A stretch of DNA of 64,000 nt from an uncultured Candidatus Saccharibacteria bacterium (GTDB lineage: Bacteria; Patescibacteriota; Doudnabacteria; UBA920): positions 55,502-119,501 of the forward strand of contig CAZHER010000001.1 of the NCBI GenBank assembly GCA_964532005.1, written 5' to 3'. Below the pieces are notes generated by a model. It made no database searches and had not been told where the DNA came from. It was given only the letters and a program-made list of their open reading frames with translations. Both the position numbers and the translations under genes were made by a program. Positions 52 through 36,918 of this stretch are shown in pieces; within the stretch, counting starts at the first letter, position 1, and every line of letters starts with the position of its first letter.

Positions 52-2691
52 TTGTATGTGATCCCGTTTTTGGGTTATGCCAGCTATTTGGTCCCTGGAA
101 CTACAAACGACGCAGCCTATTTCCCACCTAAAATCCCTGAGATAAGAGTAAAAGTATATGCAAACACTGATGCGGGTAGAGCAGCGTATTTAGCAGATAA
201 AGACAAACCACCAGAGGATAGTGACAACCAAGGAGGCACAAGTACCGCAGCCACTGGCGGCTCAGCAATTGGTGATATAATCAATCAATTTGTTACGATA
301 CAAATTCTGATATTTACCCGAATTATTTACTGGCTGTTTGCAAATGTTTTGGCCCCGTTGATTGAAGCTTTACTGCAAGTCCACCCATACAAAGACATTT
401 TTGTTGAGGTTATTTATTTAGGTTGGCAGTTGATCCGCAACCTTTGTAACATATTCTTTATTGTTGTTTTGCTTGTAATCGGTCTAGGAACTTTGTTCCG
501 GGTAGAAAACTATAATTATAAGCATTTGTTGGTTAAGGTTGTTATAGCAGCTTTGTTAGTCAACTTTAGCTTGGTATTTGGTCAAGCTATTCTAGGTGTT
601 GCCGATACAGTGCAAGCACAGTTTTTACCCGACAGTGCCAATGTTATTCGCGCTTTGGGCAGCAAGCTCATGGTAGATCCGATAAATACTCTTACTCAAG
701 ATGAAAATTTTAGAGTAGGAAACTCAACGAGCGCTGGGGCGTCTTTTGCCAATATCGCCCGTCCAATGTTTGCTTTTGCTTTGGCTTTAGGTGCATTTTT
801 TGCATTTATTGCTATTGCAGCATTTTTAGTGATTCGGTTAGTGGCTTTGTGGGTGTTGCTTTTGGTATCCCCAATTGCTTATGTGGCAAACATACTTCCA
901 ATGACCAGCAATTACGGCAAAGAGTGGTGGAATAAGTTTTTAAAATATGCTTTTATGACCCCTGTGCTGGCATTTTTCTTGAATTTAGCCGCTGTGTTTG
1001 CCACCACATTTTTAAAGGACCAAGCAAGCTTTCAGAAATTGATGAGCGCACAGAATGTTGAAGGAACTATTAGCGAGTTTGTTTTTCTTGCCGGTAGCCA
1101 AATTTTGGTAATTCTGTTTATTCTAGTGGGTCTAAAAGCTGCCGCCAGTTCAGGTACCTATGGTGCCGCTGCAGTTACAGAATTTGCCGAGAAAGGGATG
1201 AAGAAGCCGTTTCAATGGGCTGGTAGCAAAGCTTTGGCAGGGACCAAAGCCGGAGCTGAAAGAGGATTTGAGGCCATACAGAATAGAGCTGGAATTACCT
1301 TAGATCCGCGGTTGTTAAAAAAAGCTGGTTCAGAATATTTTGCCGAGCAAAAAGCAAAGCGCTTGCAAGCCAGAGCCACGCGTAATTTTATGGGTATGAA
1401 GCACGGCCCCAAACTAGGAGATGCTAAAAGTAATTTTGAAGCTTATGCCAATTGGCGCGGGTTCAAAAGAGCTGTTTCGAGCGGTCCTTTGGGTTGGCGC
1501 GGTGCTGGGTATTACCAAAAAAAATATAACGAGGCTTCACCTTATGCCAGCCTAAAGACCGATGCAGAAAGAAAGCTCATGACAGATAAACGTTTTTATA
1601 ATAATAAAGCTTTGAAAAATAGAGAACCAGACAAACAACGATTGGAAATAGAGCTTAAAACTGCTGAATCGGACTATAATGCAAATCCCAAAGATGATGC
1701 TAAAAGAGCAGCGTTCGAAGATAAGCAAAACGAGTACAAGCAGTTTATGAGAACCAAGATCAATCCGTTGACTGAAGAAAATGAAAAAATAACAGCTGAA
1801 TTGGACAAAGACGAGCAATTAAAAAAAGATCTTATTGACCCAAGGACAAAACAAAAAGGGATTGCGAGTTGGGATGACGATATGCAAAAAGAGTGGCGCG
1901 AAAAAAAGGAATCTTACGACAAAAAAATTACTGAAAGAAAAAGGCCGGAAGGCTATGCAGCTATTGCTGCTCACCACCACTTATTGAGCGATGAAGAAAA
2001 GAAAATTTCTCATATTGACGACTCCGATCGCTTAGTGCAGTTGTATAAAGATGCGTTTGCTCAAGGGGATAGATATAAAGCAGAAGCAGTACTTCACAAA
2101 CTTGCTAAAGATACCAATTTTAACGAAATTACCACAGAACTATATGGCGGGATGAGCAGGGATCATAGCAAAAGACTTTTTGAAGATTTTGGGGAGCATT
2201 TTGGAGTAGATGAACATGGGGTTTTAGAACTGGCTTCGGAAGTTGGGTATATAAATGAAGGGGTTAATATGTATAATGGCGCGCGTTTAACTACCGTGGA
2301 TAAGCATGGTCATATGAAATGGGCAGAAAAACAACAACATGAAGCTGCCATAGAAGCCCAAATGAAAAAGGTTGAGCCGCAAGGACAAGCTAGGAATTTT
2401 TGGCGAGGATCTTTTGTGGATGAGCAGCAAAACGACAAGGGCGGTAAAGATTTTACATTGCACGGTGCAGGTATCAAAATTCTTGAAGATTCATTGTCAA
2501 AAGGAGCAGGTTTGAGAGGCGTAGCCGAACGTATGCAAGAATATAACAGAAATGCTATTGCAAAAGCCATCAGAGACGAAGTAGAAAAAAATCCAGCCGC
2601 AGCACGTGAAAGTGTTAAAAAGCTATACAACAATAAAGATTTAATGAGAGCTCTAGAAATGGGTAAATATGATTCTAATGTTTCCAAATAA
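52..2691 (+). CDS. VirB6/TrbL-like polytopic membrane protein with a ~500-aa K/E/D-rich C-terminal extension; may be 5'-truncated by the window edge
   Basis: The N-terminal ~350 aa hold 6-7 predicted hydrophobic helices, as in TrbL/VirB6 proteins. It lies immediately upstream of PrgI-like and VirB4 genes. The reading frame is open upstream of the TTG at 52 to position 1, with a GGAGAGG RBS at 37-43. Confidence 0.55.
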   Translation: MYVIPFLGYASYLVPGTTNDAAYFPPKIPEIRVKVYANTDAGRAAYLADKDKPPEDSDNQGGTSTAATGGSAIGDIINQFVTIQILIFTRIIYWLFANVLAPLIEALLQVHPYKDIFVEVIYLGWQLIRNLCNIFFIVVLLVIGLGTLFRVENYNYKHLLVKVVIAALLVNFSLVFGQAILGVADTVQAQFLPDSANVIRALGSKLMVDPINTLTQDENFRVGNSTSAGASFANIARPMFAFALALGAFFAFIAIAAFLVIRLVALWVLLLVSPIAYVANILPMTSNYGKEWWNKFLKYAFMTPVLAFFLNLAAVFATTFLKDQASFQKLMSAQNVEGTISEFVFLAGSQILVILFILVGLKAAASSGTYGAAAVTEFAEKGMKKPFQWAGSKALAGTKAGAERGFEAIQNRAGITLDPRLLKKAGSEYFAEQKAKRLQARATRNFMGMKHGPKLGDAKSNFEAYANWRGFKRAVSSGPLGWRGAGYYQKKYNEASPYASLKTDAERKLMTDKRFYNNKALKNREPDKQRLEIELKTAESDYNANPKDDAKRAAFEDKQNEYKQFMRTKINPLTEENEKITAELDKDEQLKKDLIDPRTKQKGIASWDDDMQKEWREKKESYDKKITERKRPEGYAAIAAHHHLLSDEEKKISHIDDSDRLVQLYKDAFAQGDRYKAEAVLHKLAKDTNFNEITTELYGGMSRDHSKRLFEDFGEHFGVDEHGVLELASEVGYINEGVNMYNGARLTTVDKHGHMKWAEKQQHEAAIEAQMKKVEPQGQARNFWRGSFVDEQQNDKGGKDFTLHGAGIKILEDSLSKGAGLRGVAERMQEYNRNAIAKAIRDEVEKNPAAARESVKKLYNNKDLMRALEMGKYDSNVSK

Positions 2692-4788: not shown

Positions 4789-5247
4789 ATGCAATATAAT
4801 GTTCCCCAATTTACTGATGTAGAAGACAAGCTGGTAGCCGGCTTGGGATTTAAGCAGTTTGGGATCTTGTTCGGAGTAGGGGTCCTGATGTTTTTAACTT
4901 GGAACATTACAAAAAGCGTAGCTTTGCTAATTATTGTTGGCGTATTTTTAGGACTTCCTGCTTTGGCCATAGTGTTTATTAAGGTTAACGGGCGTCCTTT
5001 ATACAATTCGTTGTTTGCCTTGGCAGGTTCCGCTTTTGAAGCAAAACATTTTGTTTTTCACAAGCAGGGCATGACGTTGGCCGAAAATAAAGAGACTGCG
5101 GTAATTAAAGAAGAGACGCCAGCCCAAGCCACTGGCACGGCAATGGTAAGAATAAAACAGCTAAATTATTTGTTACAGCAACAAGCATCAGAAGAACAAC
5201 TGCTCATTCAACATATAGCAGATGGAAACAAAACAAAAGAAACATAA
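4789..5247 (+). CDS. PrgI/TcpE-family (VirB3-like) small membrane protein
   Basis: About 150 aa with two adjacent TM helices (GILFGVGVLMFLTW... LLIIVGVFLGLPALAIVFI) directly upstream of VirB4. It has the size, topology and position of PrgI/VirB3. RBS GAGGGGA sits upstream of the ATG. Confidence 0.55.
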   Translation: MQYNVPQFTDVEDKLVAGLGFKQFGILFGVGVLMFLTWNITKSVALLIIVGVFLGLPALAIVFIKVNGRPLYNSLFALAGSAFEAKHFVFHKQGMTLAENKETAVIKEETPAQATGTAMVRIKQLNYLLQQQASEEQLLIQHIADGNKTKET

Positions 5248-5911
5248 TAAATCCGTAAATCCGACCCAGTCGTTTTTACGTACCAAAGAGATCAAAGGGG
5301 ACACCATGATCATGGATGACGGTACTTTGCGTGCTGTTTTAGCCGTGTCCTCAACTAATTTTGATCTGAAAAGTCAGAGCGAGCAAGATGCACTAATTTT
5401 TGCGTACCAAAGATTTTTAAATTCATTAGACTTTTCCATTCAAATATTAATGCAAAGCAGGCGAATGGATATCGCCAGTTATACCGAAAAGATTAAGGAT
5501 ATAATGGAGAAACAAACCAATGAATTGCTTCGGATGCAAACCGCAGAATATATTGAATTCGTTAACCGCTTGGTGGAAACTGGAAATATCATGAACAAGA
5601 ATTTTTATTGCATTATTTCGTATAATGAAAGTATTGGATCTGACAAGGTGGGGTTTTTTGCATCGTTATTTACTAAAAGCCGAGCCAAGGCCATTGCCCA
5701 AAGAGAAGCCAATTTTGAACACCATAAAGCAATGTTGGAAGAACGGGTGACCAGCGTTTCCAGCAATCTCAATGGCATGGGCTTGCGTGCTGTGAAACTC
5801 AACACAGAGCAGATAATAGAGTTGATTTATAACTCATATAATTTTGAATCAGCTCCACAGATCGATGCCAGCCAGCTGGAAAATGTCACTTTAACAGAAG
5901 AAACAAAATAA
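5222..5911 (+). CDS. VirB4/TrbE-family N-terminal domain, encoded as a separate ORF (split VirB4)
   Basis: The segment DGTLRAVLAVSSTNFDLKSQSEQDALIFAYQRFLNSLDFSIQI resembles the N-terminal region of VirB4/TraC/TrbE. Its stop lies 1 nt before the ATG of the ATPase ORF, in a different frame. Confidence 0.55.
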   Translation: METKQKKHNKSVNPTQSFLRTKEIKGDTMIMDDGTLRAVLAVSSTNFDLKSQSEQDALIFAYQRFLNSLDFSIQILMQSRRMDIASYTEKIKDIMEKQTNELLRMQTAEYIEFVNRLVETGNIMNKNFYCIISYNESIGSDKVGFFASLFTKSRAKAIAQREANFEHHKAMLEERVTSVSSNLNGMGLRAVKLNTEQIIELIYNSYNFESAPQIDASQLENVTLTEETK

Positions 5912-5912
5912 A

Positions 5913-7754
5913 ATGGGATTATTTGATTTAAACGAAGAACAATTAAAGAAAAAGAAAGAAGAGCTGGGAAAGCTGAAGGGAACTCTGGATGAGAATGCCC
6001 GTCTGGCTGAAGTGGAAAAGAACTACCGAGAAGGGCTCACTACGTTAAAAGATCTACTGGCCCCTTCGGCTTTACATTTTGAAAGCAACAGGTTTCAGCT
6101 GAACAACAAGTATGCCAGAACTTTTTTCGTGCTCGCATATCCCAGAATGCTTTCTACTAACTGGCTGTCCTTTATTATCAACTCTGAGGGTGAGTTGGAT
6201 GTATCAATGTTTATTTACCCGATTGACTCAGCTGTTATTTTAAAAAAACTTAAGTCAAAAGTTGGAGAAATCGGTTCACAAATAAGCATAAACCAGGAAA
6301 AAGGAATGGTCAGGGATCCAATGCTGGAAACGGCGTATAAAGATGTCGAAAGCTTGCGCGATGACCTTTCGCAAGGCACAGAAAAATATTTCCGCTTCGC
6401 TTTATATTTCACTATTTATGCAGAAGATGAAAAGGAATTGGAGAAAAATTCTACAATCTTAGAAAGCTCCCTTGGCGCTAAACTTGTTGTCACCAAGAGG
6501 GCATTGTTTCAGACCGAGGCCGGGTTTAACTCCTCTTTACCTCTTGGGCTAGATGAATTGGACATTGCAAACAATTTAAATACCTCGCCGCTGTCCACAA
6601 CATTTCCCTTTGTATCTTCCGATTTAACAGGAAATGACGGAATTTTGTACGGAATAAACAGACACAACAACAGTTTGATTCTGTTTGATCGGTTTAAAAT
6701 GGAAAATGCGAACTTTGTTGTTTTTGCAAAATCTGGTGCTGGAAAATCATATGCTATTAAGCTCGAAGTTTTGCGTTCATTAATGGTAGGTACTGAAGTT
6801 ATTATAATTGACCCAGAAAATGAGTATAAGCATTTGTCCGACGCAGTGGGAGGCACCTACTTAGGAATTTCGCTAAACTCCGACTTCCGCATTAACCCTT
6901 TTGACCTGCCATCTGCAATAGAAGACGAAGATACCGCAGATATTTTACGCAGCGGCATTATTAACCTATTAGGCTTGTTTAACCTCATTCTAGGCAAGCT
7001 AGACCCTACAGAAGAGGCTCTGTTGGACAAGGCCCTATGGCAGACGTATGCTAAAAAAGACATCACTGAAGCTAGCGATTTACGCACTGTAGAGCCTCCT
7101 GTGATGGCAGATCTTATTGAAGTTTTGAACGATATAGTTGGGGCGGAAAGCTTGTCTCAGCGGTTGACCAAATTTACTGAGGGGACTTTTGCGGGACTGC
7201 TAAACCAACCAACTAATGTTACCTTAAACAATCAGTTGCTTACTTTTTCTATACGCGACTTGGAAGAAGAACTTCGCCCTATTGCTATGTATATTATTTT
7301 GGGGCATATATGGAACTTGGTTAGAAGCGAATTAAAGCGCCGAATTTTGGTTTTGGACGAAGCTTGGATTATGATGCAACACGAAGATTCCGCCAGGTTT
7401 GTATTTGGAATTGCCAAGAGATGTAGAAAGTATTATTTAGGACTGACCACCATAACCCAGGACGTAGCTGACTTTATGAGCAGCCCGTATGGTAAGCCGA
7501 TCGTGACGAACTCATCTATCCAGCTTCTATTAAAGCAAAGCCCGGCAGCTATCGAGGTTATTGCTGAAACATTTTTCCTAACCGAAGGAGAAAAATATTT
7601 GCTTCTGGAAAGCGAAGTCGGCGAAGGTATCTTCTTCGCCGGCCTAAAGCACGCCGCTATTAAAATATACGGCTCATACGTAGAGGACCAGATTATCACA
7701 ACAGATCCAAAACAGCTCTTGGAGATTAAGCAGAGCAAAGAAGAGGTAATTTAA
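5913..7754 (+). CDS. virB4: VirB4-like type IV secretion ATPase (C-terminal ATPase domain)
   Basis: Walker A FAKSGAGKSYAIK and Walker B RILVLDEAWIMMQ. Overall VirB4/TraE-like organisation. Confidence 0.8.
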   Translation: MGLFDLNEEQLKKKKEELGKLKGTLDENARLAEVEKNYREGLTTLKDLLAPSALHFESNRFQLNNKYARTFFVLAYPRMLSTNWLSFIINSEGELDVSMFIYPIDSAVILKKLKSKVGEIGSQISINQEKGMVRDPMLETAYKDVESLRDDLSQGTEKYFRFALYFTIYAEDEKELEKNSTILESSLGAKLVVTKRALFQTEAGFNSSLPLGLDELDIANNLNTSPLSTTFPFVSSDLTGNDGILYGINRHNNSLILFDRFKMENANFVVFAKSGAGKSYAIKLEVLRSLMVGTEVIIIDPENEYKHLSDAVGGTYLGISLNSDFRINPFDLPSAIEDEDTADILRSGIINLLGLFNLILGKLDPTEEALLDKALWQTYAKKDITEASDLRTVEPPVMADLIEVLNDIVGAESLSQRLTKFTEGTFAGLLNQPTNVTLNNQLLTFSIRDLEEELRPIAMYIILGHIWNLVRSELKRRILVLDEAWIMMQHEDSARFVFGIAKRCRKYYLGLTTITQDVADFMSSPYGKPIVTNSSIQLLLKQSPAAIEVIAETFFLTEGEKYLLLESEVGEGIFFAGLKHAAIKIYGSYVEDQIITTDPKQLLEIKQSKEEVI

Positions 7755-7770: not shown

Positions 7771-9834
7771 ATGCTTTTACTAGACGGCTCCAATAACAAA
7801 TCTGGGGGTGATTCATTCAAAAAATATTTGGCAGACCAGGCTAAAAGAGAAGTTTTGAATCGCTCTCAAGATTACTTAAACGAAAACTTCTCCGACAGCG
7901 GAGATGATTTTGATTTTTCTGACGCTTTAGACGGAGGGTCGATTAAGGATTCCTTAAAATCCAACTTGAAGAAGCGGGCGAAAAAAGAAATAATTGGCCG
8001 TTCCCAAGATTACTTAAACAAAAATCTCTCCGACAGCGGAGATGATTTTGATTTTTCTGCATTAGATCAAGGGAGCTCGGTAAAAGATGTTCTAAAAGAT
8101 AATTTGAAGAAGCGGGCGAAAAAAGAGTTACTGCAAAGATCCCAAGACTATTTAAATGAAAAAAATCCTTTTGGTGAAGAAGGGGGAGGAAAGTTTGATT
8201 TTGCAGATAATGCCGGTGATAAGTCTCTAAAACAAATTTTTAAGGACAACGCAAAGGATATAGCTAAAGATCAATTGGCAAAACAAGGAGAAAGACTTTT
8301 TGATTATGCTCAAGAACAAAATCCCAGACTAGGAGGTTTGCGAGAAGCGTTTTATGATCCCAAAAATGACGACTTTTCCAAAAGATTTGCTGGAATTAAA
8401 GGCACAAATAAAGAAAAAATAAAAAAGCAGGTAGAACAAATACTGGACGAAGAGGGTAAAGAAGCTTTAAAGAAAAGGATTAAAAAAGAGATTGAACAGT
8501 ATTTAGAAAAATATGGAAAAAGGACTGCAACTGAGGAGGCACAACATTTAGCTAACAAAGGATTAAAGTATGGGGTCAGGAGAGGTGTTACCAAAACTGC
8601 AAAAACTGCTGTTAAGACAGGTATAGAATCAGCTGCAAAAACTGGAATCAAAGCCGGAGCCAATGTTGGTGCCAAGGTTGGGGCTACGGCAACAGCAGAA
8701 GTCGGCTTGGAAGCAGGTGCAGAATTCTTAGGAGCAGCCGGTGCTGTAGAAACTTTCGGCATCAGCGAAATACTTGCACAGCTAATTGTTATTGCAATAA
8801 GTTTGGGTATATCAGATGCAATTGATGGTGCGGAATGTTTATTGAAAAGGGATTACAAGCAAGCTTTTCATTTTTTCTTGCGAGCCGCAACTAAAATAGG
8901 AGTTTTTATTTTATTTATAGTAATTACAATAATAAGTTTTGCTATTTTAAATATTTTTGGTTTATTAATACCAGTTATCTTAATCGATCTGTATTGGTCG
9001 CTTAGTGCTATTCCTTTTGTACAAGATATGGCTTTGGCTCAAGGTTTAGTTTGGTGGGAAAAGCTAATTATAGTGTTAATGAACCTGTTAATAATTTTTG
9101 CCATAGGTTTGTATACCCTAATGGGCTTGTATATTTGGTGTAATATAGGGTCATTGGCAGGTACTACTGTTGGGGGACCTGTTGGCACAGTGATCGGGGG
9201 AGTAATAGATACGGCAACAACAGCAAAAGGGTCTTATTGTGAAGCGTTTCAAAAAGTGGGCTCCAGCACAGGAGGTTCAGGAGGGGGTCAAACTGGGGAT
9301 GGAGGCGGAGGCCAGACTGGCGGCCAGATCCCATCGGGAATGGTAGATGCTAAAACCGTGGTGCCGGACTTAGTGGTGGAAATGCGTTATGCCACGACCA
9401 ACAATTTCATGAACAAAGTTTTGTATAAAGCAGAGGGCACGCCAGGAAACAGGTGTTTGCTCAAAAGTTCGGTTGCTGATAATTTAAAGAAAGCACAAAC
9501 TGCCCTGGCGCAAAAAACCCCTGCAGGAATGAAGTTAAAGGTTTTGGATTGCTACAGGCCTGTTGAAGTACAACAAGAAATGTATGACTGGGGCAAGCCG
9601 TTGGGACATGTCCCAAAATACATTGCTGAACCAGGAAGCGGCAAGCATCCAAAAGGTGAAGCTATTGACTTAACTATAGTAGACAGTAGCGGAAAAGAAC
9701 TTTCTATGCCTTCAGATTTTGACGAGTTTTCTTCTAGAGCAGGCGGTTCAAATGCCAACTCACGCATTTTGGAACAGGTTATGGGAGCGGGCGGATTGAG
9801 CCGTATAGCCAGCGAGTGGTGGCACTTTAATTAA
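7771..9834 (+). CDS. membrane-embedded cell-wall hydrolase fusion: N-terminal acidic tandem repeats, polytopic TM segment, Gly-rich linker, C-terminal peptidase M15 (VanX/D-Ala-D-Ala dipeptidase-like) domain
   Basis: Three ~47-aa repeats (RSQDYLN.N.SDSGDDFDFS...). Three to four hydrophobic helices. A GGSGGGQTGDGGGGQTGG linker. The C-terminal EMRYATTNNF...EAIDLTIVD region resembles VanX-type M15 zinc peptidases. Confidence 0.6.
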   Translation: MLLLDGSNNKSGGDSFKKYLADQAKREVLNRSQDYLNENFSDSGDDFDFSDALDGGSIKDSLKSNLKKRAKKEIIGRSQDYLNKNLSDSGDDFDFSALDQGSSVKDVLKDNLKKRAKKELLQRSQDYLNEKNPFGEEGGGKFDFADNAGDKSLKQIFKDNAKDIAKDQLAKQGERLFDYAQEQNPRLGGLREAFYDPKNDDFSKRFAGIKGTNKEKIKKQVEQILDEEGKEALKKRIKKEIEQYLEKYGKRTATEEAQHLANKGLKYGVRRGVTKTAKTAVKTGIESAAKTGIKAGANVGAKVGATATAEVGLEAGAEFLGAAGAVETFGISEILAQLIVIAISLGISDAIDGAECLLKRDYKQAFHFFLRAATKIGVFILFIVITIISFAILNIFGLLIPVILIDLYWSLSAIPFVQDMALAQGLVWWEKLIIVLMNLLIIFAIGLYTLMGLYIWCNIGSLAGTTVGGPVGTVIGGVIDTATTAKGSYCEAFQKVGSSTGGSGGGQTGDGGGGQTGGQIPSGMVDAKTVVPDLVVEMRYATTNNFMNKVLYKAEGTPGNRCLLKSSVADNLKKAQTALAQKTPAGMKLKVLDCYRPVEVQQEMYDWGKPLGHVPKYIAEPGSGKHPKGEAIDLTIVDSSGKELSMPSDFDEFSSRAGGSNANSRILEQVMGAGGLSRIASEWWHFN
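7858..8290 (+). repeat. in-frame tandem DNA repeats (about 3 x ~140 bp) inside the CDS 7771-9834
   Basis: Near-identical nucleotide blocks: cgttcccaagattacttaaac...gacagcggagatgattttgatttttctg...ttgaagaagcgggcgaaaaaag. Confidence 0.7.
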
Positions 9835-9848
9835 CAGCAATAAAGATT

Positions 9849-10667
9849 ATGGATAATTTACCACATAACAACCCAGAAGCGGTTACTGAGTCAGAATCGG
9901 AACAAGATTACAAACATGATTATCGGGATAGGGAAATCGGCCGACAGTATTTTCCTATTGCTGCCTATGTTGGAATTATTGTAGCAATATTGGTGGGAGC
10001 TCTGATTATCGGTTTTAGTATTATAATTTCTTCAGGAAAGTATCCTCAATTGGCTGGCGATCGAGATAGTAAGCTGGCCGGGCCATCTGTCAACACAGGC
10101 TCGCAAATACAAAACGTTCCCCCAAATGCTGAAATAAAATTATTAGATGAGTACCCGTTTATGGGTTCAAAAGACGCCCCTATTACCATGGTGGAATTTG
10201 CAGATTTTCAGTGCCCATTCTGCAAGGAGTTTCATGATAAAGCTTTGGGGAAAATAAAGTCGGAGTATGTTGATTCAGGAATTGTTAAATTTTATTTTTT
10301 ACATTTTCCTTTTCTCGGGTCTGAATCGAACGCAGCAGCTGCCGCAGCCGAGTGCGCCAGACAGCAAAATAAGTTTTGGGAATTTCACGATCTATTGTAC
10401 AAGAATCAAGGGATGGAAAACGGCGGAGCTTTTGAAGATAAAGCTTTGTTAAAATTGGCAGGCCAATTAGAGTTAAATCTGGACAAATTTAATTCTTGCA
10501 GGGCCAACCCCAAAACAGCGGAAGCAGTAAAACAGCAACTAGATATAGGCCAGCAGCATGGGGTTGAGGCCACACCCACGGTTTTCATCAATGGAGCAAA
10601 ATATGAAGGTTCTAATCCTTTTTCAGCTTATCAGAGCTTAATAGAGGTGCTGAAAAGTAAAAAATAA
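9849..10667 (+). CDS. membrane-anchored DsbA-like thiol-disulfide oxidoreductase (thioredoxin fold)
   Basis: N-terminal TM helix. CPFC active site in the context FADFQCPFCKEFHDK. Confidence 0.7.
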   Translation: MDNLPHNNPEAVTESESEQDYKHDYRDREIGRQYFPIAAYVGIIVAILVGALIIGFSIIISSGKYPQLAGDRDSKLAGPSVNTGSQIQNVPPNAEIKLLDEYPFMGSKDAPITMVEFADFQCPFCKEFHDKALGKIKSEYVDSGIVKFYFLHFPFLGSESNAAAAAAECARQQNKFWEFHDLLYKNQGMENGGAFEDKALLKLAGQLELNLDKFNSCRANPKTAEAVKQQLDIGQQHGVEATPTVFINGAKYEGSNPFSAYQSLIEVLKSKK

Positions 10668-10732: not shown

Positions 10733-11893
10733 ATGAATAAAAAAGCTATAGCCATACTCGGGGGAATATTCCTTTTGATTGTATTGGCTCTGGGTTTGCT
10801 TATATTCCTAAGGTCACGAAATTCCAGCGACAACACAAATCAGAATTCTAATGATCAAGTTCAGGTTCCTGACCCTCAAAATAATACTGAACCAGAACCT
10901 GAACCAGAACAGCCTAGTGTCAACAGGGCAGAAAAACTTACCGACGGCGATGTTGTGGCTCCTGCGTTGTATTACAACGGACAAGGGATTTCTTATTTTG
11001 ACCAGCAGGGCCGTTTGTTTACCACCGACCTAGAAACTTCCGGCGATAAGGTATTGCTCAGCAACAAACGAGAAATTACCATCCCTTTGAAAGCCAACAT
11101 GATTAATGTTTATTGGGCACCGTCGGGACAAAATTTTATTGCTGAGTTGCAGTCCGGTGGAAAATCTATTTGGAGCTATTATGACGGCACCAAAGGATCA
11201 TATGTAGATATACCGTCACAAGTTCAGTCATTGGATTGGTTTGGCACAAGCGGAAAAATTTTGTTTGTCTGGCAGGATGAAACAGGAAAAGCTTATCTCA
11301 ATTCAGGAAACCCAGATACTACTGAATATCAAGTCTTAACTGACTTGTACGAGGCAGACAATAAGATTGTTGTTTCCCCTAACGGACGCAGTGTTTTATT
11401 TTACCGCTTTAACAATGCCGGAACCCAAAATTCTATCAATTTTGTTTCCCCTGACGGCAAAGTGTTCAAATCCATTGTAAAAGAAGGATATAATACGGGT
11501 GTAAAATGGTCTCCTGACAGCAACAAGTTCTTGTTCAATAGAAGAGATCCCGCAACTCAAAAGTTAGCACTATGGGTAGGAGATCTGACTTCAGGTGAGA
11601 TAAAAAGCTTGAACGTTGAAACTACTTTAGAAAAAACGGTATGGTCACGAGACGGACAAAATGTGTACGCCGCTGTGCCGAATAAAGGAATAGCCGGACA
11701 AGGCTTAACAGAAGACGTGCTATATAAAATAACAGTTTCCAGCACCCTGAGACAGCAATATGATTTCGGTGTGCCTGCTGACGCCAGAAATATGTTTGTT
11801 GACCAATCCGAGAGTAAGATTTTCTTCAAAAATTATCAAGATCAATATTTGTACTATTTCAACGTTCAAAATAGTTCAAACTCAGGACAGTAG
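10733..11893 (+). CDS. secreted/membrane-anchored beta-propeller (PD40/TolB-like repeat) protein
   Basis: N-terminal TM/signal. Repeated WAPSGQ / SPNGRS / WSPDSN motifs typical of PD40-like propeller blades. Confidence 0.45.
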   Translation: MNKKAIAILGGIFLLIVLALGLLIFLRSRNSSDNTNQNSNDQVQVPDPQNNTEPEPEPEQPSVNRAEKLTDGDVVAPALYYNGQGISYFDQQGRLFTTDLETSGDKVLLSNKREITIPLKANMINVYWAPSGQNFIAELQSGGKSIWSYYDGTKGSYVDIPSQVQSLDWFGTSGKILFVWQDETGKAYLNSGNPDTTEYQVLTDLYEADNKIVVSPNGRSVLFYRFNNAGTQNSINFVSPDGKVFKSIVKEGYNTGVKWSPDSNKFLFNRRDPATQKLALWVGDLTSGEIKSLNVETTLEKTVWSRDGQNVYAAVPNKGIAGQGLTEDVLYKITVSSTLRQQYDFGVPADARNMFVDQSESKIFFKNYQDQYLYYFNVQNSSNSGQ

Positions 11894-11909
11894 TAATTTT
11901 TAAAATATT

Positions 11910-11950
11910 CACCCCTTCTTTCTTTTAAGAAGGGGTGTTATTATTTATTT
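11910..11950 (+). terminator. rho-independent terminator
   Basis: 9-bp perfect stem caccccttc/gaaggggtg with a 10-nt loop, followed by ttattatttattt. Confidence 0.6.
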
Positions 11951-13297
11951 ATGAAAGAAAAAACAGTATATTTTTGTACAAATTGCAATTTTCAAACTCC
12001 TAGATGGCAGGGAAAATGTTCTGAATGTGGTGAATGGAACACTTTTGAAGAAAGAGTCATAACAACCTCTAAATCAAAAAATTCCTCTTATTCAAGCTTG
12101 AATTCGGGAAAGATTGTATCTTTAAGCCAGGTGGGCGATATGAAATTCGAGCGTTTAAGTTCTGGAATAGGAGAACTGGATAATGTGCTGGGTGGAGGCA
12201 TAGTTCCCGGAAGCTTGTTGCTATTGGGGGGAGACCCAGGAATTGGCAAGTCCACCTTGGCTTTGCAAGTGGCTTTGAACATGGGTTCTGCCAACGGAAC
12301 CGTTTTATATATATCTGGGGAAGAATCAGCACAGCAAATAAAAATGAGGAGCAGAAGAATTCCAAGCGGAACCGATATACAAATTTTAGGGGAAACTAAC
12401 TTGGAGACTATCCTAGATGTTTTGGTGAATACTAAGCCTAGTATAGCAATTATAGATTCCATTCAAACGTTGAACTCCCAAGAAATTGGCGGTGTGGTCG
12501 GCGGGGTAAGCCAACTTAGTTATTGCACCAATGCTTTAATGCGAGTAGCAAAAGAGAACCATATTGCAATTTTGCTTATTGGGCACGTAACCAAAGAGGG
12601 AATGCTGGCAGGGCCAAAAACAATTGAACATATGGTGGATACGGTTTTGTATTTGGAAGGGGATCGTTTTTTAACTTTGCGTCTACTGCGTAGCAGTAAA
12701 AATAGATTCGGAAGTGTCGGAGAAGTTGGTGTGTTCGAGATGACTGAACAGGGGTTGAAAGAAGTAGTCAATCCATCATTGCTGTTTTTGGAAAACCGGG
12801 GATCGGCACTGCCCGGAAGTTGCGTCGCAGCAGTACTAGAAGGGAATAAGACACTGTTTCTAGAAGTACAAGCACTGACCAGTCCCTCTTCTTTCGGCTA
12901 TCCAAAGCGTGCTACGTCAGGCTTCGATGTAAACAGACTACAGTTGCTTTTGGCTATCCTGCAAAAAAGCTTAAAACTCGAACTGAATGCCCACGATGTG
13001 TACATAAATGTTGCAGGAGGTTTTAAAATCCAGGAAAGAGCAGCAGACCTAGCAGTGGTGATGGCAGTGCTCTCATCTTTTAAAAACAGAGCTTTACCTG
13101 AAGATTTGGTTGCTTTTGGTGAAATTGGCCTACTTGGAGAATTGCGCGCTGTTAGCCAATCAGATCGTAGGCTAAAAGAAGCTCAAAAATTATCTTTTAA
13201 AAACATTATTATAGGAGGACAGGCAAAAGGGGTCTCAAAAGATAAATCAGTGTTTTCGGTTTCAAAAATACAAGAGTTGGTGAAGTTTTTAGGATAA
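11951..13297 (+). CDS. radA: DNA repair protein RadA/Sms
   Basis: N-terminal C4 zinc finger (CTNCNFQTPRWQGKCSECGEW). RecA-like Walker A GDPGIGKST. Lon-like C-terminal domain. Confidence 0.9.
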   Translation: MKEKTVYFCTNCNFQTPRWQGKCSECGEWNTFEERVITTSKSKNSSYSSLNSGKIVSLSQVGDMKFERLSSGIGELDNVLGGGIVPGSLLLLGGDPGIGKSTLALQVALNMGSANGTVLYISGEESAQQIKMRSRRIPSGTDIQILGETNLETILDVLVNTKPSIAIIDSIQTLNSQEIGGVVGGVSQLSYCTNALMRVAKENHIAILLIGHVTKEGMLAGPKTIEHMVDTVLYLEGDRFLTLRLLRSSKNRFGSVGEVGVFEMTEQGLKEVVNPSLLFLENRGSALPGSCVAAVLEGNKTLFLEVQALTSPSSFGYPKRATSGFDVNRLQLLLAILQKSLKLELNAHDVYINVAGGFKIQERAADLAVVMAVLSSFKNRALPEDLVAFGEIGLLGELRAVSQSDRRLKEAQKLSFKNIIIGGQAKGVSKDKSVFSVSKIQELVKFLG

Positions 13298-13300
13298 GTC

Positions 13301-15355
13301 TCATTCTTGGTGAGTAACTGATATTATAGGCTCTATTTTTTGAAGAAGAAGTGGGAAGCGAGCAAGGCTTTTGTCCTGTTTAAACAGAGCTGTTGCTGCG
13401 ATTTGGGCTATTTCAGCCATTTCTGAAGTGAAATATCTGGAAAATTGGAAAGAAAATCCACTTTGTTCAGTTCCAAACAGATTACCAAAACCTCTTTGCT
13501 TCAGATCTTGTTCTGCTAAAGCAAATCCGTCCAAACAGTTGGCGAAAAATTTCAATCTTTCATAATTTTTGGCATCTCCAGAGCTCGAAAACAATGCACA
13601 AAAACTTTTTTGTCCTGCACGGCCAACCCTGCCTCTTAGTTGGTGGAGTTGGGCAAGTCCAAATCTTTCTGCTCCTTCAATAATAATCCAGCTTGCCCGT
13701 GGAATATCTATGCCAATTTCAATGACCGAAGTTGCTACTAATATTTTTATTTTTCCTTGACTGAATTCTGACATCACTTGCTCTTTATCAACTCCTTTCA
13801 TTGATCCATATAGCAGCCCCATCGGAATATTTTTAAATGGTCCCGATTTTAGTTTTTCATATTCTTCCTTTACGGATTTAATTTGCGAAGTCTCACTATC
13901 TTCAACTCTAGGTGTGACAATGAATGCCTGCTCGCCATTCTTGATGGCATCGATTAGTACTGAATAAATTTTTTGTCGGTCACTTTCTTGAGCAAGAAGA
14001 GTGGAAATTTTTTTTGTCCCAGAGGGTATAGTGTAGAGAGTTGAAATTTTTAAGTTACCGTAAAACGACAACGCTAGGGTTCTGGGAATTGGTGTTGCCG
14101 ACATGGATAGAAGATGAGGGACAAGTTTTTGATACTGCACTTGCTTAAGCACAAAAGATCGTTGGTTTACTCCAAACCTGTGCTGCTCGTCAATAATTGC
14201 CAATCCCAACTTGTTAAAACTTACTTCTTTTTGGAGAATTGCGTGTGTACCAATTAAAATTTGTATTGATCCTGACGCGGTTTTTTCCAATAGCTCCGCT
14301 TTGTTTTTTACATTGGTACCGTTGGATTCAGCGAAATTCTTAGTTAAAAATCCGATAGAGCATTCTGGTAGAAATTTTTTAAAATATGTATAGTGCTGGG
14401 AAGCAAGTATTTCCGTCGGTGCAAGAACACAGGTTTGCCAACCGGAAATTGCATTGTTTAACGCTGCCAAGACCGCCACCAAAGTTTTTCCACTACCAAC
14501 ATCGCCTTGTAACAGACGAACCATTTGTTCGCCTGACGATAGGTCTTGCATAATGTCCCACAAAGCTCTTTTTTGGCTAGCAGTAAGCTGGAACGGCAAA
14601 GTTTTTAGAGTTTTGGCAACCTGTTCGGTTTGCAATTCTATTGGCGGTGCAGACACTTTTGCTTGTCTGGATTGCTGTAATCCAGCCGCCAATTGGTGTA
14701 CAAACAGCTCTTCAAAAGCTATTCGGTTTTTGGCCAGCTCCAGTTCTTGATCGTTGTCTGGAAAATGAAGGTCTAGTATTGTCTTATTTATATTGGGTAG
14801 GCGATATTTTTTTAATATTTTCTTTGGAAGTATTTCGGGTTCTTGCTCTGCATAAGGCAATGCTGAAGTAATGATGTTTCTCAGAGTTTTGTTTGAAATC
14901 ACCGAACTGCCCGAATAAACAGGTACAAGTCGACCTGTATGTACTGAATCGGAGCTCAGCTTTTCATAAATAGGATTCTGTAACTGCAAAACATTTTTGT
15001 AGTAAGTAGCGGTCCCAGCTAGGGCAATGTCGTCGCCGGCAGAAAGGGCTTTGGCAATATAGGGTTGGTTAAACCAAATTATTTTAATGGATCCTGTTTT
15101 ATCGGATACAACTGCTTCCGAGCGACTCATTCGTCCCCGGAAAGCAAAAGACGCTGAGACGGATTTTACCTGTCCCCGTATTGTCACAGCTTGCCCCGTT
15201 TTGATTTTTGAGATGGAAACTATTTGCCTAAAATCTAAATATCGCAAAGGAAAATGCCAAAGCAAATCCTTTATGGTATTAATTCCTATTTTTTCAAGAT
15301 TTTTGGCAACAGCAGGACCAACTTTGGGTAGAATTGTGACTGGATCGTGTGTCAT
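13301..15355 (-). CDS. recG: ATP-dependent DNA helicase RecG
   Basis: DVGSGKT Walker A, DEQHRFG, SATPIPRTL and the wedge/OB N-terminal region. Length is typical (684 aa). Confidence 0.9.
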   Translation of the reverse strand: MTHDPVTILPKVGPAVAKNLEKIGINTIKDLLWHFPLRYLDFRQIVSISKIKTGQAVTIRGQVKSVSASFAFRGRMSRSEAVVSDKTGSIKIIWFNQPYIAKALSAGDDIALAGTATYYKNVLQLQNPIYEKLSSDSVHTGRLVPVYSGSSVISNKTLRNIITSALPYAEQEPEILPKKILKKYRLPNINKTILDLHFPDNDQELELAKNRIAFEELFVHQLAAGLQQSRQAKVSAPPIELQTEQVAKTLKTLPFQLTASQKRALWDIMQDLSSGEQMVRLLQGDVGSGKTLVAVLAALNNAISGWQTCVLAPTEILASQHYTYFKKFLPECSIGFLTKNFAESNGTNVKNKAELLEKTASGSIQILIGTHAILQKEVSFNKLGLAIIDEQHRFGVNQRSFVLKQVQYQKLVPHLLSMSATPIPRTLALSFYGNLKISTLYTIPSGTKKISTLLAQESDRQKIYSVLIDAIKNGEQAFIVTPRVEDSETSQIKSVKEEYEKLKSGPFKNIPMGLLYGSMKGVDKEQVMSEFSQGKIKILVATSVIEIGIDIPRASWIIIEGAERFGLAQLHQLRGRVGRAGQKSFCALFSSSGDAKNYERLKFFANCLDGFALAEQDLKQRGFGNLFGTEQSGFSFQFSRYFTSEMAEIAQIAATALFKQDKSLARFPLLLQKIEPIISVTHQE

Positions 15356-34492: not shown

Positions 34493-35545
34493 ATGTTTGA
34501 TTCAGTTTTTAAAAGGTTTTCAAAAGATCTGGGGATAGATCTTGGAACGGCAAATACCCTCGTCTATGTAAAAGGCAAGGGTATTGTTATCAATGAACCT
34601 TCGGTTGTGGCAGTAAATCAAAGAACTAAGCAAATTTTGGCGATTGGAACTGAAGCCCAAAGAATGGTTGGTCGTACACCTGCTCACATTGTTGCTAATA
34701 GACCTTTGGTTTCGGGGGTTATTTCCGATTTTGAAGTGACCGAACAGATGCTCAGGTATTTTATAGACAAAGTTCACAATGAAACATATTCATTTCTCCG
34801 CCGTCCGCGCGTTGTCATTGGAATACCTTCCGGCGTAACCGAAGTAGAAAAGCGCGCCGTGCAAGATGCTGCTATTAATGCAGGGGCCAGACAAGCTTTT
34901 TTGATAGAAGAGCCAATGGCAGCTTCTATCGGAGCGCGTCTTCCTGTTCAAGAGGCACAAGGCTCAATGATAGTTGACATAGGTGGCGGAACTTCAGAAA
35001 TAGCGGTACTGTCCTTGGGTGGGGTTGTAATTTCTAGAAGTGTACGCGTGGCAGGAGACGAAATGAATAATAATATAGTTCAATACGTCCGCGATAATTT
35101 CAATTTACTTATCGGGGTTCGTAGTGCCGAAGAAGTCAAAATTAGTATTGGCTCTGCTTATCCTTTGTCAGAGCCAATGCAAGCCCGTTTGCGCGGCCGC
35201 GATTTAATTTCCGGGTTGCCAAAAGAAATCACAGTCAACGATACCCATATCCGAGACGCTTTGAAGCAGTCCGTGAGAACTATTGTCAATAACGTAAAAG
35301 CTGTAATTGAAGAAATTCCGCCAGAGATTATTTCGGATATTATGAGTCGAGGAATTATTTTGGCAGGCGGCGGCGCTTTATTACGAGGTTTGGATGCCTT
35401 ACTTTCGGAAGAGACCCAGATGCCAGTAACTATTGCGGACGATCCTCTCACCGCTGTTGTTCGGGGCGCTGGTATAGTAGTTGAAGATTTAGAGCATCTC
35501 TCCGAAGTTTTGCTCGTCACCGATTACAGCAGGATTCCCCGCTAA
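34493..35545 (+). CDS. mreB: rod shape-determining protein MreB
   Basis: Actin-fold motifs IDLGTANT and DIGGGTSE. Confidence 0.9.
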   Translation: MFDSVFKRFSKDLGIDLGTANTLVYVKGKGIVINEPSVVAVNQRTKQILAIGTEAQRMVGRTPAHIVANRPLVSGVISDFEVTEQMLRYFIDKVHNETYSFLRRPRVVIGIPSGVTEVEKRAVQDAAINAGARQAFLIEEPMAASIGARLPVQEAQGSMIVDIGGGTSEIAVLSLGGVVISRSVRVAGDEMNNNIVQYVRDNFNLLIGVRSAEEVKISIGSAYPLSEPMQARLRGRDLISGLPKEITVNDTHIRDALKQSVRTIVNNVKAVIEEIPPEIISDIMSRGIILAGGGALLRGLDALLSEETQMPVTIADDPLTAVVRGAGIVVEDLEHLSEVLLVTDYSRIPR

Positions 35546-35564
35546 ATTCTAAACATCAAAACAA

Positions 35565-36371
35565 ATGCGTTTTATCTACACCAAAGTATTTATGTGGTTC
35601 AGTATCTGCCTGGTGGTTTTGGTTGTTTTGTTGTTTTTGCAGTACAGAGGCTGGCTTTCTCCCGTGGAATACGTAATTGCACAAGCACCACGCCCTTTGG
35701 CAAGACTGGTGAGCGGGGTAGTGGTTCCAGTCAAAAATTTTACCGGCACAATATTCTCTTTAAAAAAATTGGCTAGTGAGAACACCAGACTTGAAAGTGA
35801 GTTAATGCAAGCAAAACTCAAGGTCGCTGAAAATGAAAGACTTTCTTCTGAAAACAGCTTATTGAGGCAAGAATTGGGATTTAAGAATAAAAGCGCTTTG
35901 CAACTCCAGCCGTGTTCCGTGTTGTCACGGGATCCCGAACAGTTGGCAGATGCTTTGGTAATAGATTGCGGAGAAAATCATCAGGTCAAGGAAGGCCAGG
36001 CTGTAATGTCCCAAGGATATTTGGTTGGAAAAGTTTTCCACGTAGGAAAATTCAGCAGCACTGTATTTTTAATTACCAATGCTGAGTCTTCCGTAGACGC
36101 ACAAATATTAAATCCCGGCTCAGAGCGGGTAACTGGTGTTATTAAAGGATCTTATGGATCAGGGATTGTGATTGATTTCGTTTCGCAGAACAGCAAACTT
36201 AACAAAGGAGATCTTGTTACTACTGCAGGGATTTCCGGAATAATACCCAAGGATATTTTGATCGGCGACGTTGGCCAGGAGCTGTCTAGGCCGGAGGATT
36301 TGTTTAAAAAATCCAGTATCGCTTCCCCGATAGATTTTAGAAATCTAGATTTTGTGTTTGTTGTAAAATAA
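35565..36371 (+). CDS. mreC: rod shape-determining protein MreC
   Basis: N-terminal TM and coiled coil, then a beta-rich domain. Position after mreB. Confidence 0.75.
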   Translation: MRFIYTKVFMWFSICLVVLVVLLFLQYRGWLSPVEYVIAQAPRPLARLVSGVVVPVKNFTGTIFSLKKLASENTRLESELMQAKLKVAENERLSSENSLLRQELGFKNKSALQLQPCSVLSRDPEQLADALVIDCGENHQVKEGQAVMSQGYLVGKVFHVGKFSSTVFLITNAESSVDAQILNPGSERVTGVIKGSYGSGIVIDFVSQNSKLNKGDLVTTAGISGIIPKDILIGDVGQELSRPEDLFKKSSIASPIDFRNLDFVFVVK

Positions 36372-36379
36372 AGTCGCGC

Positions 36380-36916
36380 ATGAGATATTTGATTTATACA
36401 GCAGTTATTATAGTTAATTTTGTTTTGGCCAAAGATCTTTTTGGACATTTTACCTTTGCCGGCGCAATTCCCAACTTAAATCTGCTTCTGATTATAATAA
36501 CTGCAAGCGAATCCGAAAAACTTGATTTTTTGTTTATTTCGGTTATCGCCGGACTTATTACTGACATTGGTTTTGGTTTGCCTATAGGTACTTTTTCTTT
36601 GGGGTTTTTGTTGACCGGGCTCCTGGTCTATTATCTTTTTCATGGTCCTTTATCGATCAGTCTTAGTTGGAAAAATTTTGGTTTGGTGGCAGTAGCAGGT
36701 GTTGTATTTACATATCTTTGGACCGTAACATTTAGCAAGTTAGCCATGATAATGGGGGTACTACCGTTTTCTTTTTCTTATGCGCAGTTCACAAAATTGA
36801 TCTTTTTTATTGTTTTATATAATCTGACATTGGCTTTTCCCATGTTCCTTACCTATGCTTATATAACCAGCAGAATTGATTCGAGATCAGTCAAGAAATC
36901 GCAGTATATATCATAA
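36380..36916 (+). CDS. mreD: rod shape-determining protein MreD-like polytopic membrane protein
   Basis: Hydrophobic 178-aa protein between mreC and PBP2. Confidence 0.55.
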   Translation: MRYLIYTAVIIVNFVLAKDLFGHFTFAGAIPNLNLLLIIITASESEKLDFLFISVIAGLITDIGFGLPIGTFSLGFLLTGLLVYYLFHGPLSISLSWKNFGLVAVAGVVFTYLWTVTFSKLAMIMGVLPFSFSYAQFTKLIFFIVLYNLTLAFPMFLTYAYITSRIDSRSVKKSQYIS

Positions 36917-36918
36917 CC

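Follow-up and report, generated by a model that had tools for sequence, protein, structure and literature searches.

Type IV secretion systems (T4SSs) of monoderm bacteria are served by wall hydrolases in which an SLT or muramidase domain is combined with a CHAP, NlpC/P60 or M23 domain (PMC12102498). The gene described here lies at positions 7771–9834 (forward strand) of a 64,000-nucleotide stretch of DNA from an uncultured Candidatus Saccharibacteria bacterium (assembly GCA_964532005.1, contig CAZHER010000001.1, positions 55,502–119,501; hereafter "the window"), and it encodes a 687-amino acid protein whose C-terminal domain is a zinc peptidase module of the VanX type (M15D). Like PrgK of pCF10, TraG of pIP501, CwlT of ICEBs1, TcpG and the VirB1 of diderms, this protein is encoded in a T4SS operon, is membrane-anchored and has a wall-enzyme domain, and its orthologues bear a canonical SLT domain. 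Its gene follows that of the ATPase VirB4, as prgK follows prgJ.

The differences from these systems are considerable. PrgK, TraG, CwlT and TcpG each combine a glycosidase with a peptidase, whereas the window protein carries a single enzyme of the M15D type and no glycosidase. Its anchor, unlike that of the PrgK-type proteins, is a large family-specific scaffold, made of a helical N-terminus of 330 amino acids and a four-helix core, which is enzyme-free in most genomes. Furthermore, the window system is chromosomal and non-conjugative, unlike those to which PrgK, TraG, CwlT and TcpG belong.

A case with a similar gene position is SEML1_0007 of Candidatus Southlakia epibionticum ML1, an essential protein of 1113 amino acids encoded just downstream of VirB4, which is annotated with a C-terminal "Hedgehog/DD-peptidase" fold of ECOD and with "Peptidase M15B" as the top match (Wang et al., 2023, Table S2). 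Southlakia "peptidase and lysozyme homologues" are also mentioned by Quinonero-Coronel et al. (2025; PMC12102498). Both SEML1_0007 and the window protein are found in Saccharibacteria, are encoded directly downstream of VirB4 in a T4SS cluster, and end in a domain of the LAS/M15 superfamily. However, SEML1_0007 has no Pfam match and its top structural matches are "Peptidase M15B" and "Peptidase M23", so that its domain would be VanY-like or other and not of the VanX type represented by PF01427. The two proteins are likened by position and by C-terminal fold superfamily, homology of their N-terminal parts being unproven: a search with the scaffold profile gave no strong match near the length of SEML1_0007, only a weak N-terminal one to a protein of 1159 amino acids (P0175, E = 1.1e-5). 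In addition, Southlakia has a separate lysozyme/CHAP protein, SEML1_0006, whereas the T4SS cluster of the window contains no such gene.

An earlier note on this DNA did not recognize the architecture as that of a described T4SS component. It is not wholly without record, as a DD-peptidase-fold C-terminus in the protein after VirB4 had already been listed for SEML1_0007 (Wang et al., 2023, Table S2). The wall hydrolases described for monoderm T4SSs include no M15D module, and a full-text literature search for T4SS, VirB1, M15 and peptidoglycan hydrolase yielded no case of one. T4SS-associated wall enzymes as a category and an M15-superfamily domain after VirB4 in Southlakia are already known; new are the identity of the module as VanX-type, the definition of the scaffold family, the apparent exchange of SLT and M15 cassettes on it, and a DsbA-like gene that was probably acquired together with the module.

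The VanX-type module and the protein that carries it

The module occupies residues 523–687 (positions 9337–9831, forward strand) and is assigned as a VanX-type zinc D,D-peptidase by profile matches and key residues. Pfam PF01427 (Peptidase_M15) matches residues 523–687 with 94.1 bits (E = 1.3e-26; gathering cutoff, 27 bits) and the orthologue P0006 with 98.7 bits; the VanY family PF02557 gives 27.2 bits on the same C-terminal domain. Among the NCBIfam models, the DdpX-type dipeptidase (PRK10178, NF007557) reaches 99.9 bits and VanX (NF033115) 39 bits, both under their equivalog cutoffs of 176 and 320, respectively, so that the module is not regarded as an orthologue of DdpX or VanX. Pfam and NCBIfam profile searches gave no match to an SLT or lysozyme domain in the window protein, and the sole match found by phmmer among PDB sequences is VanX (1r44).

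The catalytic residues point in the same direction. R596, H626, D633, E682 and H685 (positions 9556–9558, 9646–9648, 9667–9669, 9814–9816 and 9823–9825, forward strand) align to R71, H116, D123, E181 and H184 of VanX, and all five are invariant in an alignment of 70 sequences made of the module and 69 relatives. Following the residue roles documented for VanX (bioRxiv 10.1101/2023.10.13.562161; PMC5778951), the zinc triad H-x6-D...H is formed by H626, D633 and H685, E682 in the motif SEWWH is the base, and R596 in DCYRP is the transition-state arginine. The zinc ligands, on which the earlier note had made its M15 assignment depend, are therefore intact, together with E682 and R596. Y540 in an RYAT motif and D651 in an FD motif are also kept, and the module has a Cys pair, C562/C594, at positions where VanX has Ile and Gly.

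An AlphaFold2 model of the module built from the 70-sequence alignment has a predicted local distance difference test score (pLDDT) of 93.5 and a predicted template modeling score of 0.89, and its fold resembles that of VanX twice as closely as that of any LAS enzyme acting on peptidoglycan. The VanX-like M15 domain claimed in the earlier note is thus upheld by the PF01427 score and by a fold closer to VanX than to the other LAS subfamilies. The module is also the most conserved part of the protein, with 88% identity to the orthologue of locus L011, which is 80% identical over its length; measured against this orthologue, the ratio of nonsynonymous to synonymous substitution rates (dN/dS) amounts to 0.043 for the module and 0.081 for the membrane core. 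The gene is real and under constraint, and the module appears to be catalytically competent. A decayed or non-functional domain was considered and is ruled out by the dN/dS of 0.043 and the intact catalytic residues.

VanX and DdpX (M15D, PF01427; PDB 1r44) are free-standing proteins of about 200 amino acids, whereas the module is the C-terminus of a 687-amino acid T4SS membrane protein and is predicted to lie outside the membrane. VanX and DdpX are cytoplasmic, and PcgL, another PF01427 enzyme, is periplasmic. Of the 202 residues of VanX, 159 align with the module, which is shorter by about 40, and the Cys pair is lacking in VanX. The closest relatives of the module, with 35–48% identity, are free-standing exported PF01427 proteins (P0019–P0138) from Cyanobacteria, Bacteroidota, Actinobacteria and others, which have the Cys pair and all catalytic residues in common with it. 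Unlike the module, each consists of one domain with a signal or lipoprotein peptide of its own, and they retain two elements that the T4SS-fused modules have lost: a C-terminal tail and an 8-amino acid loop. Indeed, the module stops two residues past EWWH (EWWHFN), where the 69 relatives continue with a tail of 19 amino acids in the median, and it has an 8-amino acid deletion after residue 660; the same C-terminal truncation is seen in P0002 and P0006/P0017. None of the exported PF01427 relatives listed is linked to a T4SS, but the search missed the module's own parent protein and its fused orthologues, so that the absence of other fusions from the list is no evidence of absence. The exported clade, which spans Cyanobacteria, Bacteroidota, Actinobacteria and other phyla, is annotated by the sources as D-Ala-D-Ala dipeptidases.

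The whole gene is identified as that of a post-VirB4 scaffold protein of the Saccharibacteria T4SS with a C-terminal VanX-type M15 module by the open reading frame (ORF) list, orthologues and synteny. The ORF placement of the earlier note agrees exactly with the ORF list. The ATG lies 16 nucleotides past the stop codon of VirB4 and is preceded by a Shine-Dalgarno-like motif, AAGGA. Orthologues are found at 80% and about 49% identity, and P0002 (80% identity) and P0006/P0017 have the same architecture as the window protein.

The N-terminal part begins with three tandem repeats of 46 amino acids (residues 17–154; positions 7819–8232, forward strand), recognized by Tandem Repeats Finder, self-alignment and the AlphaFold2 model. 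At the nucleotide level the period is 138 with about 2.1 copies at 78–81% identity; in the protein, RSQDYLN anchors are placed at residues 31, 77 and 123 and FDF at 47, 93 and 142, and pairwise alignments of the units score z = 11–22 over shuffled controls. In each unit, a helix rich in Lys and Arg leads into an acidic DDFDF/KFDF loop, with predicted helices at 14–40, 59–89 and 104–131 and low-pLDDT loops between them, and the copy number differs between orthologues. The "acidic tandem repeats" of the earlier note are therefore present as repeats, but the acidic character applies to the DDFDF loop and not to the Lys/Arg-rich helix, and the net charge of residues 1–160 is just −3. The repeats are followed by a Lys-rich, all-helical region (residues 155–327; positions 8233–8751, forward strand; composition and predicted helices), which is presumed to be cytoplasmic. 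Composition, hydropathy and the helices of the AlphaFold2 model reveal no signal peptide in the charged N-terminal region of about 330 amino acids, which contains 40 Lys plus Arg and 35 Asp plus Glu as a family-wide mean.

The conserved membrane core (residues 328–498; positions 8752–9264, forward strand), defined by hydropathy, invariant columns and the AlphaFold2 model, has four hydrophobic helices followed by two short helices, and a multi-helix membrane segment is thus found as the earlier note had read it. The membrane helices extend over approximately 331–351, 374–394, 395–415 and 431–456 according to hydropathy and the model, in which they have pLDDT values of 72–86, with a hairpin break at 393–395. 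The signature of the core is ILAQLIVIAISLGISDAIDG ... QGLVWWEK, and in alignments of 12 and 42 sequences the window protein has all of its elements, LIVIAISLG..DA.D, QGLVWWE and two invariant Cys. Of its residues, C457 and C490, which bracket a conserved segment that is not transmembrane, are invariant, and D349 and D352 nearly so. Between the core and the module lies the Gly-rich flexible linker STGGSGGGQTGDGGGGQTGGQIPS (residues 499–522; positions 9265–9336, forward strand), already noticed in the earlier note and seen here in the sequence and in low pLDDT, which is the junction of the module exchange described below. It is the least conserved segment of the protein (59% identity to the L011 orthologue), and equivalent linkers precede the SLT domain in orthologues. 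The AlphaFold2 model of the full-length protein is of low confidence overall (pLDDT 61.6), and a fold search with it against the PDB gave no significant match, the best (E = 0.43) coming from the M15 part.

Scaffold family, module exchange and companion genes

The scaffold corresponds to the N-terminal 500 amino acids or so. Its profile, run against 1.84 billion representative proteins, matches 42 clusters (E ≤ 1e-10), most of them 350–500 amino acids long, and a search with the conserved core found matches solely in metagenome-assembled genomes (MAGs) of Candidatus Saccharibacteria and in one Doudnabacteria MAG. In the species-representative genomes, 8 of 10 scaffold genes end just past the second invariant Cys and carry no enzyme. 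A C-terminal module after the Gly-rich linker is found in one clade: SLT in P0003, P0005, P0007, P0008, P0009, P0014, P0160 and P0182, and, more rarely, M15 in the window protein (P0001), P0002 and P0006/P0017. Of these, P0182 was added by an alignment-based homologue search, together with one module-less member (P0183). The search for the same fusion beside VirB4 elsewhere, proposed in the earlier note, thus had a positive outcome in two other genomes, L001 and L011.

The type of enzyme does not follow the relationship of the scaffolds. The window scaffold core is 65% identical to that of the SLT-bearing P0003 and 55% to that of the M15-bearing P0006, and the P0006 scaffold is nearest to the SLT-bearing P0007 (62%) and P0009 (60%); the M15 modules of the window protein and P0006 are 65% identical to each other. 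A single origin of the M15 fusion is unsupported, as the M15-bearing scaffolds do not cluster together. Since each scaffold sublineage contains SLT as well as M15, at least two exchanges would have taken place, or else the linker would have been a site of recombination. On sequence grounds, the enzyme is an optional, exchangeable cassette on a conserved T4SS scaffold.

The module-less scaffold of locus L004 terminates (at about 10780–10927 of that locus) with a Gly-rich stub, GGGGDFGGGGAGGSVDN (...GPSGGGGDFGGGGAGGSVDN). This stub hardly differs from the linkers found before SLT in P0007, P0008 and P0009, which suggests a remnant of module loss. Weak matches to the Lys-rich N-terminus of the scaffold profile are given by P0175, P0180 and P0181, large PrgK-like proteins with several wall enzymes (C39_2 and M23; glucosaminidase, SLT and C39_2; and M23) and a single transmembrane helix, as inspected in P0175. 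These matches may be due to composition, or to a cytoplasmic N-terminal region shared among monoderm T4SS hydrolases.

Two companion genes are associated with the modules. The first, at positions 9849–10667 (forward strand) of the window, encodes a DsbA-like, membrane-anchored thioredoxin (Pfam Thioredoxin_4, 126.7 bits; DSBA, 49.8 bits) with an N-terminal transmembrane anchor and a CPFC motif at residue 122. Five of the module-bearing loci (the window, L011, L002, L012 and the P0182 locus) are long enough to be judged, and each has the DsbA-like gene downstream of the module. None of the seven informative module-less loci has it; there, a PD40 gene begins less than about 100 nucleotides after the scaffold. 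Probably, the DsbA-like protein is a folding partner of the presumably exported module and was acquired together with it. The second companion, a gene for a protein of 211–214 amino acids, is inserted between the scaffold and dsbA in the SLT-bearing loci (L012, 7794–8429; L002, 11629–12267; and the P0182 locus), and is absent from the M15 loci, in which dsbA follows directly. Its product has a signal peptide, an ectodomain of about 150 amino acids with a 4-Cys motif, and a C-terminal transmembrane anchor; the 211-amino acid form has no Pfam or NCBIfam match. It seems, from this distribution, that the exchanged unit is SLT plus the 211–214-amino acid gene on the one hand and M15 on the other, and the protein may be a putative regulator or immunity-like partner of the SLT module.

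The chromosomal T4SS locus

The gene is placed in the T4SS operon directly after VirB4, and the T4SS linkage proposed in the earlier note is therefore correct. The VirB4-type ATPase is encoded directly upstream at positions 5913–7754 (forward strand; Pfam P-loop_TraG, 88 bits, with CagE_TrbE_VirB and AAA_10), and its counterparts across the Saccharibacteria loci are 78–93% identical to the window copy; identities of 92–93% to VirB4 of Saccharibacteria MAGs also served to place the organism. Further upstream are a PrgI/VirB3-like gene (4789–5247, forward strand; Pfam PF12666, 33.9 bits) and an ORF for a TraC/TrsD-like protein of 229 amino acids (5222–5911), which matches NCBIfam TrsD/TraD and the N-terminal part of mycoplasma-type VirB4, as well as a TraC-like Pfam family. 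This ORF shares 26 nucleotides with the end of the PrgI gene and is 56–86% identical across all loci, and it may represent a separately encoded VirB4 N-terminal-like domain. A VirB6/TrbL-like membrane protein is encoded at 52–2691 (forward strand; Pfam TrbL, 25.2 bits against a cutoff of 25.9), with 879 amino acids from a TTG start; orthologues have 1106–1146 amino acids and a TrbL_3 domain. Probably, this gene is cut by the window start and begins upstream of it, so that VirB2-like pilin arrays, such as those beside VirB6 in Southlakia, would fall outside. For the unknown neighbors in the T4SS cluster, no informative Pfam or NCBIfam match was obtained except the TrsD/VirB4-N-like one of the ORF at 5222–5911.

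The order of the locus is VirB6/TrbL-like, two unknown genes, PrgI, TraC/TrsD-like, VirB4, scaffold, DsbA-like, PD40-repeat, RadA and RecG. Its part from VirB6 through the two unknown genes, PrgI, TraC-like and VirB4 to the scaffold is strictly kept in every locus long enough to show it, and the PrgI–TraC-like–VirB4–scaffold order is conserved in 12 loci, as judged by tblastn in L002–L010 and by gene tables for L011, L012 and the P0182 locus. In the compared loci, the scaffold gene sits between VirB4 and the PD40-repeat and RadA genes. The PD40/TolB-like beta-propeller gene and then RadA always come after the T4SS cluster; in the window, where this region spans 10733–15355, RecG is also present, on the opposite strand.

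The remainder of the window is chromosomal housekeeping (GatA/B, MiaA, MreB/C, PBP2, Mur ligase, tRNA synthetases, glycosyltransferases and sortase), and no relaxase or coupling protein is found within the 64 kb. A conjugative or mobile element was considered and is ruled out by the conserved chromosomal synteny across Saccharibacteria, the housekeeping neighbors and the lack of a relaxase or coupling protein in the window. The earlier note had spoken of a conjugative T4SS; the gene content and synteny instead identify the locus as a chromosomal, vertically conserved, non-conjugative T4SS of Patescibacteria/Saccharibacteria, MPF-FATA-like in type. Patescibacterial chromosomal T4SSs without DNA-transfer components have been described (Quinonero-Coronel et al., 2025; PMC12102498), and the T4SS of Saccharibacteria is essential for epibiotic growth (Wang et al., 2023; PMC10633639). 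A protein of 476 amino acids, encoded at 59946–61376, has a sortase domain at the C-terminus after an N-terminal region of about 330 amino acids. The sortase, together with MreB/C, PBP2 and Mur ligase (34493–38892 and 43315–44589), points to a monoderm, wall-bearing envelope, and from the presence of the latter three in the window the organism is taken to make peptidoglycan.

Orientation and function of the module

Several features suggest that the module lies outside the membrane. The SLT modules of the orthologues contain 12–16 Cys, and SLT acts on peptidoglycan only, which is an extracytoplasmic substrate. Loop 1 of the membrane core is rich in Lys and Arg across 42 members (mean 4.0, as against 1.4 in loop 3 and about 1.4 after helix 4), so that by the positive-inside rule loop 1 would be cytoplasmic and the C-terminus outside. 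Furthermore, 58 of the 69 nearest free-standing M15 relatives carry an N-terminal hydrophobic, signal-like stretch, and the C562/C594 pair is at least 90% conserved in the exported free-standing relatives. From these features and the linkage with the DsbA-like gene, we infer that the module lies on the outside.

The gene product is best explained as the lineage-specific membrane subunit encoded after VirB4 in the chromosomal Saccharibacteria T4SS. Its usual form is the scaffold itself, a Lys-rich helical N-terminus with a four-helix core that ends in a Cys-bracketed loop, free of enzyme in most genomes. In one clade, a wall-enzyme cassette appears to have been acquired at the C-terminus, joined by a Gly-rich tether, along with the gene for the DsbA-like oxidoreductase; the cassette is usually an SLT lytic transglycosylase, but in the window protein and in two related lineages it is a zinc D,D-peptidase of the VanX type (M15D). 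The flexible linker of about 24 residues would keep the module on the external side of the membrane and no more than about 10 nm away from the T4SS, and the module would hydrolyze D-Ala-D-Ala-type bonds in stem peptides of the cell's own wall, either by trimming pentapeptide donors or by cutting D,D cross-links. The wall mesh by the channel would thereby be loosened or left un-cross-linked, and the M15 module would be the peptide-side counterpart of the glycan-side action of SLT. The functional equivalence of M15 to a wall hydrolase is proposed because orthologous scaffolds carry SLT at the same position and on the same type of linker. Cutting of stems or cross-links by the module is plausible, and an exported, tethered D,D-peptidase that acts on wall peptides beside the T4SS is the most likely reading of the data, if only a somewhat probable one; the outside orientation, the peptidoglycan substrate and the role in assembly or function of the T4SS are all deduced parts of it. 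A zinc LAS/M15-like peptidase that, as predicted for the module, acts on peptidoglycan is ChiX of Serratia marcescens, which opens the wall for protein export; it is a LAS-family L-Ala-D-Glu endopeptidase required for chitinase secretion (PMC5778951). PF01427 domains have also been reported in modular wall hydrolases.

Several points weigh against an action on wall peptides outside the membrane. Most Saccharibacteria with this T4SS have an enzyme-free scaffold, so that a dedicated hydrolase would be no general requirement of the machine. With four helices, both termini would lie on one side of the membrane, but the charged N-terminus of 330 amino acids has no signal peptide. VanX is a D-Ala-D-Ala dipeptidase, and so, to our knowledge, are all other characterized PF01427 enzymes (DdpX, PcgL and the Synechocystis homologue of Lessard et al., 1998); the known enzymes of the VanX type are strict dipeptidases. 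In LAS enzymes, activity on peptidoglycan is associated with an open active site without a capping loop (PMC4087270). Loss of the tail of about 19 amino acids and of the 8-amino acid loop could open the active site of the module. As to the parity of the helices, a fifth transmembrane helix at 458–480, which would give an N-in/C-out arrangement, was considered and rejected, as the family mean hydropathy there is 0.59 and conserved polar DWW-type motifs are present. Helix 1, which includes the near-invariant D349 and D352, shows strong conservation and a polar stripe, and the parity would be reconciled most simply if this helix departs from a normal membrane crossing.

Among the alternatives, a strict D-Ala-D-Ala (D,D-) dipeptidase at the surface, which hydrolyzes free D-Ala-D-Ala, or a D,D-dipeptide like it, released at the epibiont–host interface without cutting peptidoglycan, survives best, although we consider it rather unlikely. 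Its role would be, e.g., nutrient scavenging, hosted on this account by an organism unable to make amino acids, or signal removal. It agrees with the closeness of the fold to VanX, with the retention of all VanX catalytic residues as well as Y540 and D651, and with the annotation of the large exported clade of nearest relatives; PcgL, too, is named a D-Ala-D-Ala dipeptidase in the literature. However, the module takes the place of SLT at the same position of the same T4SS subunit, which argues for wall cutting, and a small diffusible substrate gives no reason for a tether to a secretion machine. The consistent lack of the tail and the loop in the T4SS-fused modules also suggests an altered access of the substrate.

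A weapon directed at the host is quite unlikely. Here the conserved subunit would present interchangeable wall-degrading cassettes to breach the wall of the host actinobacterium where the cells touch, maybe after cleavage of the linker, with a logic like that of polymorphic toxins. The conserved N-terminus, the linker and the variable C-terminal enzyme, with both enzymes in both scaffold sublineages, would fit, and so would the exported, membrane-anchored, Cys-containing protein of 211–214 amino acids whose gene always follows the SLT forms; the lack of DNA-transfer components in the Saccharibacteria T4SS and its necessity for epibiotic growth are in line with it as well (PMC12102498; PMC10633639). 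But the scaffold is polytopic and is conserved in all these T4SS loci, including the enzyme-free ones, a pattern of a structural subunit and not of a secreted effector, and on a tether of 24 residues a module that is not cleaved off would reach no further than the envelope of the producer itself. Besides, the M15 form has no immunity-like gene, dsbA following directly, and the two types of module seen are far fewer than in true polymorphic toxin families.

It is very improbable that the four helices give an N-in/C-in topology with cytoplasmic D-Ala-D-Ala hydrolysis that tunes the cell's own pool of peptidoglycan precursors near the T4SS: the four predicted helices, the charged N-terminus without a signal peptide and the cytoplasmic natural substrate of VanX speak for it, but the Cys-rich SLT alternative would have no substrate in the cytoplasm, the DsbA-like protein whose gene was co-acquired is exported, the Lys/Arg-rich loop 1 and the exported relatives with their common Cys pair point outward, and destruction of its own D-Ala-D-Ala pool would harm a wall-building cell.

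A wider form of the proposal of an exported D,D-peptidase is that the T4SS subunit is a platform for interchangeable wall-cutting cassettes that are repeatedly exchanged, and that the VanX module, having lost the tail and the loop, was turned into a stem or cross-link peptidase at the epibiont–host contact, possibly on the host wall. This is speculative, and we regard it as improbable; if it is true, the module would be without precedent among PF01427 enzymes in acting on a polymer, and it would be a determinant of the breach of the host by epibionts of the candidate phyla radiation.

In a T4SS on which epibiotic growth of Saccharibacteria depends, the finding defines a small, lineage-specific family of subunits. 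One clade appears to have fitted this subunit with an exported wall enzyme and a DsbA-like helper, the enzyme being either a glycan cutter or a VanX-type peptidase, which bears on how ultra-small epibionts pass a secretion channel through a Gram-positive-like wall. It also raises a question of enzymology, namely, whether the VanX fold can act on peptidoglycan once the C-terminal tail is lost, as every characterized member of the VanX family we know of is a dipeptidase. If it can, the exported "D-Ala-D-Ala dipeptidases" of Cyanobacteria, Bacteroidota and Actinobacteria may need re-annotation, and the significance of the finding would grow if the module cuts peptidoglycan or acts on the wall of the host.

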